A stretch of 64,000 bases of DNA, from NCBI RefSeq assembly GCF_000027125.1, contig NC_017626.1; one strand, written 5' to 3'. A program made the position numbers and the translations under genes. The notes beneath the pieces were generated by a model, which saw nothing but the letters and a program-made list of their open reading frames with translations, was not told the origin of the DNA and did no database searches. This DNA comes from Escherichia coli 042. Lineage in GTDB: Bacteria; Pseudomonadota; Gammaproteobacteria; Enterobacterales; Enterobacteriaceae. Of the stretch, positions 18,918-19,652 are shown piece after piece; position 1 is the stretch's first letter; each line of letters starts with the position of its first letter.

Positions 18918-19364
18918 TTATTTGCCTTCGTGCGCGTGCTCATCTTCGCGGCAATCGCCTTCGGCACAGTGACCGTAAAGATAGAGACTGTGGTTAGTCA
19001 GGCGAATGCCATGTTTTGCGGCAATTTCACGCTGACGCGCTTCGATGGAATCATCACTAAATTCGATAACCTTGCCGCAGTCGAGGCAGATCAGGTGATC
19101 GTGGTGATGTTGCTGTGTCAGTTCAAATACGGATTTACCGCCTTCAAAATTGTGGCGGGTGACGATACCAGCGTCGTCAAACTGGTTCAGTACGCGATAT
19201 ACCGTAGCCAGACCAATTTCTTCACCCATATCGATCAGACGTTTGTATAAATCTTCCGCACTGACGTGATGGTTGTCCGGCTCCTGAAGAACTTCCAGGA
19301 TTTTTAAACGAGGAAGCGTTACTTTCAGGCCAGCTTTCTTTAGGGCGGTATTGTTATCAGTCAT
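18918..19364 (-). CDS. fur: Ferric uptake regulator Fur, 148 aa
   Basis: MTDNNTALKKAGLKVTLPRLKILEVL...; HHHDH and CxxC metal motifs. Confidence 0.96.
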   Translation of the reverse strand: MTDNNTALKKAGLKVTLPRLKILEVLQEPDNHHVSAEDLYKRLIDMGEEIGLATVYRVLNQFDDAGIVTRHNFEGGKSVFELTQQHHHDHLICLDCGKVIEFSDDSIEARQREIAAKHGIRLTNHSLYLYGHCAEGDCREDEHAHEGK

Positions 19365-19443
19365 GCGGAATCTGTCCTGTTACTAAGCGGTTCACTTCAT
19401 TACGAGAAGTGACAGAATTTGCTCTTGAGATAATGCGTATCAT
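19357..19443 (-). CDS. uof: Fur leader peptide Uof, 28 aa, translationally coupled to fur
   Basis: MIRIISRANSVTSRNEVNRLVTGQIPHD; stop overlaps the fur ATG by 8 nt. Confidence 0.75.
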   Translation of the reverse strand: MIRIISRANSVTSRNEVNRLVTGQIPHD

Positions 19444-19652
19444 TATAGAATTGCCACGCCTAAATGAAAACCACAAGTCCCTGGCAAATATTGTTAATAA
19501 AAACGTGGCACTGCTTACATTTACAACGGCAAGGCCACTTGAACACCGGGACATTGTACAGGTACAACAGCAAAAGTTACAAATTTGTAGCAATTATTTT
19601 GATTGGCATTATCTATTAATACGGCGTAGACATGAGTCTACGCCGCATCACA

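Follow-up and report, generated by a model that had tools for sequence, protein, structure and literature searches.

A short leader ORF, uof, precedes fur in Escherichia coli, and a sequence resembling a Fur box lies across its start codon. This arrangement raises two questions: whether the sequence is a functional Fur site or a coincidence of A/T-rich DNA, and, if it is functional, whether its position over the leader start joins the transcriptional autoregulation of fur to the post-transcriptional control that acts through uof. Both were raised in a preliminary description of a 64,000-nt stretch of DNA from E. coli 042, which we refer to in full as the window. The part of interest, 18850-19700, holds the end of fldA, uof and fur. 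The window is E. coli chromosome: several RefSeq complete genomes match this part at 100% identity and label its genes fldA, uof ('fur leader peptide') and fur, and 5424 of the 5426 complete E. coli genomes contain it. The genes and their junction are as follows.

19653-20183, minus strand: fldA, the upstream gene, from which read-through gives fldA-uof-fur transcripts (annotation).
19357-19443, minus strand: uof, a 28-codon leader ORF (RefSeq 'uof: fur leader peptide').
18918-19364, minus strand: fur coding sequence, 148 aa (annotation).
19357-19364, minus strand: overlap of the uof stop with the fur start, ATGACTGA, 8 nt (from the sequence itself).

Read from the minus strand, the uof ATG is at 19443-19441 and its TGA stop at 19359-19357, giving 28 sense codons that translate as MIRIISRANSVTSRNEVNRLVTGQIPHD, and the fur ATG is at 19364-19362. 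The preliminary description had uof as 28 codons ending 8 nt within fur, and that is what we see, in an annotated gene with the form expected of a leader ORF, a short frame whose stop overlaps the start of the gene downstream. Compared with K-12 MG1655 over 1600 bp, the window has no indels (window coordinate = NC_000913.3 coordinate - 691282) and 20 substitutions, zero of them within 19405-19511. At 19403-19404, two neighbouring bases differ from K-12 and turn uof codon 14 from TCT (Ser) into CGT (Arg). No other codon of the ORF varies as much; codon 14 is Phe in another E. coli genome (L010) and Val in Citrobacter. Co-transcription of fldA, uof and fur has been described in the literature, and translation of fur is dependent on translation of uof according to papers that cite Vecerek 2007.

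The sequence over the uof start, and the published Fur footprint that bears on it, are placed as follows.

19429-19447, minus strand: Fur box (operator), TATAATGATACGCATTATC, at -13..+6 of the proximal fur promoter (consensus match, matrix, gel shift).
19426-19455, no strand assigned: DNase I footprint of Fur on the fur promoter, -21..+9 (Chen 2007 Table 3).

The 17-mer originally flagged, 19430-19446, reads ATAATGCGTATCATTAT on the plus strand and ATAATGATACGCATTAT on the minus strand, as first reported, and it belongs to a 19-mer (19447-19429, minus strand) that includes the uof ATG. Its match to the core Fur-box repeat had been estimated at about 14 of 17 positions and proves slightly better, 15/17 against ATAATGATAATCATTAT, with 16/19 for the full box against GATAATGATAATCATTATC. 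It is the sole site in the 64-kb window with three or fewer mismatches to the Fur consensus, and such a site appeared in none of 100 dinucleotide shuffles. The internal structure is also that of a Fur box, both as a dyad and as an array of hexamers: two 6-bp arms, ATAATG and CATTAT, make a perfect inverted repeat with 5 nt between them, and comparison of the successive hexamers with GATAAT gives 5/6 for TATAAT, 4/6 for GATACG and 6/6 for ATTATC (the reverse of GATAAT).

For a quantitative score, we took the best 19-mer from each of 11 other DNase I-footprinted E. coli Fur regions (Chen 2007 Table 3), left the fur site out, and derived a symmetric log-odds weight matrix. With this leave-fur-out matrix the box at fur scores 18.87 bits, which ranks second in the 64-kb window and falls inside the 12.8-22.7 bit range of the training sites. 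A score of at least 18.87 bits arises 0.02 times per shuffled window (4/200 shuffles), and the mean best score of shuffled windows is 14.4 bits. A low matrix score had been named beforehand as the sign of a false site, and the score obtained is high.

The matrix also picks out other positions in the window. Its best match, at 62439-62457 (GAAAATGGTACTCATTACC, 20.5 bits), is internal to the gene for a class I fumarate hydratase (ORF 61324-62976, minus strand), part of an accessory gene cluster that only 1121 of the 5426 complete E. coli genomes carry. A match at 48924-48942 (GTTAATTGTAATGATTTTG, 15.8 bits) is intergenic between gltA and sdhC, about 230 bp upstream of sdhC, and scores barely above the mean best of shuffled windows; another, at 32744-32762 (GATAAACAAATTCATTTTT), reaches 14.3 bits. 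We considered a second Fur site at 19595-19613 (minus strand, GATAATGCCAATCAAAATA, 14/19), just downstream of the fldA stop and beside the distal uof promoters, and rejected it: its 11.3 bits are below the weakest training site and below the shuffle mean best of 14.4, and the match is not significant alone.

Published binding data fall on the same bases as the box at fur. Chen 2007 Table 3, which cites de Lorenzo 1988, tabulates the fur footprint at 709931-709960 of NC_000913 v2, with two walkers (predicted sites) and 83% coverage; the limits used here are therefore the second-hand ones of Chen 2007 and not those of the primary paper, de Lorenzo 1988. We placed them on the window with a fixed offset (window = v2 - 690505), taken from the v2 positions of fur (709423-709869) and uof (709862-709948) in a start-site table based on that genome version, the alignment to K-12 being free of indels. 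The footprint then occupies 19426-19455 and encloses the Fur box. Exactly two matrix-positive positions occur within it, 19429-19447 and 19435-19453, which together cover 25/30 bp, or 83%; their agreement with the published two walkers and 83% tests the mapping independently. Gel-shift papers give this very 19-mer as the promoter's Fur box, active Fur shifts a 110-bp fur promoter fragment that carries it, and Fur loaded with metal or a cluster binds the site, as seen by footprint (-21..+9) and by gel shift. A footprint elsewhere would have counted against the flagged site, and the published one maps onto it. The choice that had been left open by eye can thus be made from the high matrix score and the published footprint together: this is a functional Fur site, and its resemblance to a Fur box is not an A/T-rich coincidence. 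How strongly the site acts is another matter. Autoregulation of fur by Fur has been described as slight to moderate, and in one study of an E. coli Pfur::lacZ fusion iron was without effect in the wild type, so that repression in vivo would be weak at best.

What the position of the operator over the uof start can mean depends on which transcripts carry that start. The promoter elements and mapped 5' ends of the region are these.

19465-19470, minus strand: -35 TTTTCA of the proximal fur promoter (promoter scan, conservation).
19442-19447, minus strand: -10 TATAAT of the proximal fur promoter (promoter scan, start 8 nt downstream, conservation).
19434, minus strand: main fur start (A), v2 709939, 46 reads, 70-nt 5' UTR (Kim 2012 Table S1).
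19371, minus strand: additional 5' end, v2 709876, 28 reads, 7 nt upstream of the fur AUG.
19546-19582, minus strand: Puof, distal promoter, with -35 TTGTAA at 19582-19577, -10 TACAAT at 19558-19553 and start at 19546.
19546, minus strand: Puof start, v2 710051, 8 reads, assigned to uof.
19577, minus strand: second minor uof start, v2 710082, 5 reads, assigned to uof.

A promoter scan returns TTTTCA-17-TATAAT (10/12) as the proximal promoter, and the uof ATG is made of the last two bases of its -10 hexamer and the G that follows. Kim 2012 Table S1, from a genome-wide mapping of starts in K-12, gives the sequence upstream of the start at 709939 as ...TTCTATAATGATACGCA. That start, 19434 in the window, comes 9 nt beyond the A of the uof ATG, which itself sits at -9..-7, and relative to the same start the Fur box overlaps the core promoter and covers the -10 hexamer. 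The Puof start at 19546 is 7 nt downstream of a predicted promoter, TTGTAA-18-TACAAT. The additional 5' end at 19371 is downstream of the AGGA Shine-Dalgarno and may mark an almost leaderless fur mRNA or result from processing. The uof start codon is therefore carried only by the two minor transcripts, from 19546 and 19577, and by read-through from fldA, and is absent from the transcript that begins at 19434 and from the 5' end at 19371; the read counts listed above were obtained in a single study under a single set of growth conditions and are not quantitative for promoter use. The literature describes the same geometry: in one paper the Fur box overlaps the -10 of Pfur-a and the fur starts lie inside the uof ORF, and a second, independent paper has Pfur 'located within the uof ORF', with Puof upstream.

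We think it very probable, at roughly 90%, that this element serves the proximal fur promoter as its classical Fur operator and holds two signals on the same bases without being a coupling device. The 19-bp box spans the -10 and start region of a sigma-70 promoter (TTTTCA, 17-nt spacer, TATAAT, start 19434), and bound Fur would keep RNA polymerase off that region, as its position and the accepted mode of Fur action suggest. Such occlusion would account for the modest negative autoregulation reported for fur. The uof start is the ATG that any good Fur box contains in its GATAATGAT half-site. The box and the uof start overlap because TATAAT followed by G and the half-site both contain ATG, and a good Fur box on a consensus -10 always carries an ATG at that place, so a functional explanation of the overlap is unneeded. 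Since the main start lies past the uof ATG, the transcript repressed by Fur is one without a uof start codon. The major Fur-controlled fur mRNA, with its 70-nt leader, thus lacks the uof start, and translation of uof, with any control that acts through it, is limited to the minor longer mRNAs from Puof and fldA. The same bases would then be read on different molecules, as DNA by RNA polymerase and Fur, and on the long mRNAs by the ribosome. This division into two transcript classes applies only to uof translation itself: according to Sinha 2018, it is the short fur mRNA that RyhB lowers and not the uof-fur mRNA, so that post-transcriptional control by RyhB is not confined to uof-containing transcripts.

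How the element and the ORF have fared across Enterobacterales bears on all the readings. Among 80 species-level loci retrieved with Fur as query, the TATAATG element (TATAATGA) occurs no more than 200 nt upstream of fur in 72, and a TTTTCA-like -35 (at least 5/6) stands at 17-nt spacing in 63. Column conservation across the 80 species is about 0.9 in GGTTTTCATTT, TTCTATAATGA and ACGCATT, and falls from 0.9 to 0.5 along the right half-site, ATTATC. The score of the weakest matrix training site is reached or exceeded by 41 of the 72 sites, and the perfect 6-bp dyad is retained in Escherichia, Salmonella and many Citrobacter loci. Among the 5426 complete E. coli genomes, 5274 have an identical 45-nt segment running from the -35 to the end of the footprint. 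The ORF that opens at the embedded ATG varies more widely in its fate. Of the 80 species, 36 have its TGA stop at fur +5 and 7 have its end at +1; it meets an upstream stop in 24 and is fused to fur in 4, and the ATG context is lacking in 8. It is reached from the conserved TATAATG about 70-110 nt upstream of fur (loci L009-L088), and in the 36 species where it overlaps fur it has 28-30 codons. Shorter forms have 16 codons in Salmonella enterica subsp. arizonae, 13-14 in Atlantibacter, Klebsiella oxytoca and Raoultella, and 4 (MRRK) in Pantoea, while in-frame fusions to fur are found in two of three Buttiauxella loci, in Dryocola and in Enterobacter sp. R1. In the 28-codon class, codons 16-23 are most variable at their third positions (0.36 against 0.09 and 0.07), and 54% of changes are synonymous where 28% are expected. 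A coding-type signal in the 28-codon uof is only suggested by these figures, which come from related sequences that are not phylogenetically independent. Judged by conservation, the promoter and its operator form the ancient unit that has been kept, and the overlapping 28-codon uof is a narrower feature.

Other ways of reading the locus can be set against this. It is possible to join the observations into a single account in which uof is a lineage-specific ORF born from the ATG of an ancient -10/Fur-box element; taken with all its linked parts together, we regard this as unlikely. The ATG may, on this account, be translatable only on read-through from upstream OxyR/SoxS-responsive promoters. 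On the long transcript a dyad hairpin may then hold the uof AUG, DNA-bound Fur may form a roadblock, and the operator may set the ratio of uof-containing to uof-less fur mRNA by iron status. The account draws on the variable ORF, on a predicted hairpin and on the two transcript classes. The hairpin would form from the operator dyad in the long leader, as 6 bp of A/U-rich pairing (AUAAUG-AUACG-CAUUAU) with the uof AUG in the 5' arm, and the AUG has an unpaired probability of about 0.1 in the predicted folds, for a structure that is weak and known by prediction. Long-range pairing was also predicted in the leader, but it hinged on the arbitrary 3' end and we left it unused. A search of Rfam gave no family within 19250-19700.

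The coupling proposed in the preliminary description, in which a Fur operator over the leader start would link autoregulation with uof/RyhB control, strikes us as quite unlikely. One possible route would be a roadblock to polymerase coming from Puof or PfldA, with iron status setting the number of completed uof-containing transcripts. The geometry does allow this in principle: the operator lies at about +100 to +149 on the 19546 and 19577 transcripts, where a bound repressor could block elongation, both controls act on fur, and three promoter tiers have been described for ybfE-fldA-uof-fur. But the promoter that Fur occludes yields uof-less mRNA, its main start at 19434 being downstream of the uof ATG, which leaves the proposed coupling unsupported. 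Roadblock data were not found in the literature searched, and the motifs alone fully explain the overlap. In addition, TATAATG is conserved even where the ORF has shrunk to 4-16 codons or has fused with fur, which indicates that the overlap is not tied to a functional uof. Duplex prediction on the leader did not locate a RyhB pairing site. Full-length RNAduplex runs of RyhB against the leader gave meaningless end-to-end duplexes, and a windowed RyhB-seed search returned candidates at 19524-19502, 19424-19410 and 19462-19447 with similar energies; a published benchmark likewise found the RyhB model of the literature not predictable.

It is also possible that the element is conserved mainly as a promoter, that is as a -10 with its initial transcribed sequence, and that Fur binding is a weak by-product of little effect. 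The pattern of conservation leans this way, given that the left half and ACGCATT are about 90% conserved where the right half-site decays, and that just 41 of the 72 sites reach the weakest training-site score; so does the modest physiology, with EcPfur::lacZ showing no iron effect in wild type and autoregulation being slight or moderate. Against it, the E. coli site scores like bona fide operators and has been both footprinted and gel-shifted, and the perfect dyad is kept in Escherichia, Salmonella and many Citrobacter loci. We hold this reading, too, to be rather improbable. As for a chance resemblance in A/T-rich promoter DNA, the region is indeed A/T-rich and the -10 hexamer alone supplies 5 matches, but the idea has already been refuted by the shuffles (0/100 for the match, 4/200 for the score) and by the published footprint and gel shift at the same site, and it has practically no probability left.

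The preferred reading, an operator of the proximal fur promoter that shares its bases with the uof start, agrees closely with known systems. The operator is identical to the known fur operator of K-12 (de Lorenzo 1988; Chen 2007), at the same locus, with the same 19-mer and in the same place over the -10, and the nearest differences between the window and K-12 are the two bases in uof codon 14 noted above. The ORF is likewise the same as that of the uof-fur/RyhB system, as papers citing Vecerek 2007 present it, with 28 codons and a stop overlapping the fur start. In contrast to the uof-fur coupling model, most of the 5' ends mapped for fur fall within uof, past its ATG. Like the fur promoter, those of entC, fhuF, fepA-fes, cirA and sodA have a 19-bp dyad box over the core promoter, with scores of 12.8-22.7 bits. 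Unlike entC-type promoters, fur has a single box with one weak neighbour at +6, and its 30-bp footprint is the shortest in Chen 2007 Table 3; a single box and so short a footprint fit weak rather than tight repression.

The whole arrangement is known already: the operator dates from 1988 and uof from 2007, and papers of 2018 and 2021 remarked that Pfur lies within uof. With a textbook Fur operator and a leader ORF that is already annotated, the finding has little significance beyond good annotation. A useful clarification does come out of it: the main Fur-controlled fur transcript begins inside uof, and models of uof-dependent fur translation should therefore specify which transcript they concern. 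The survey of Enterobacterales species also shows a promoter element of much greater age than the uof reading frame that opens within it, and with stronger conservation.
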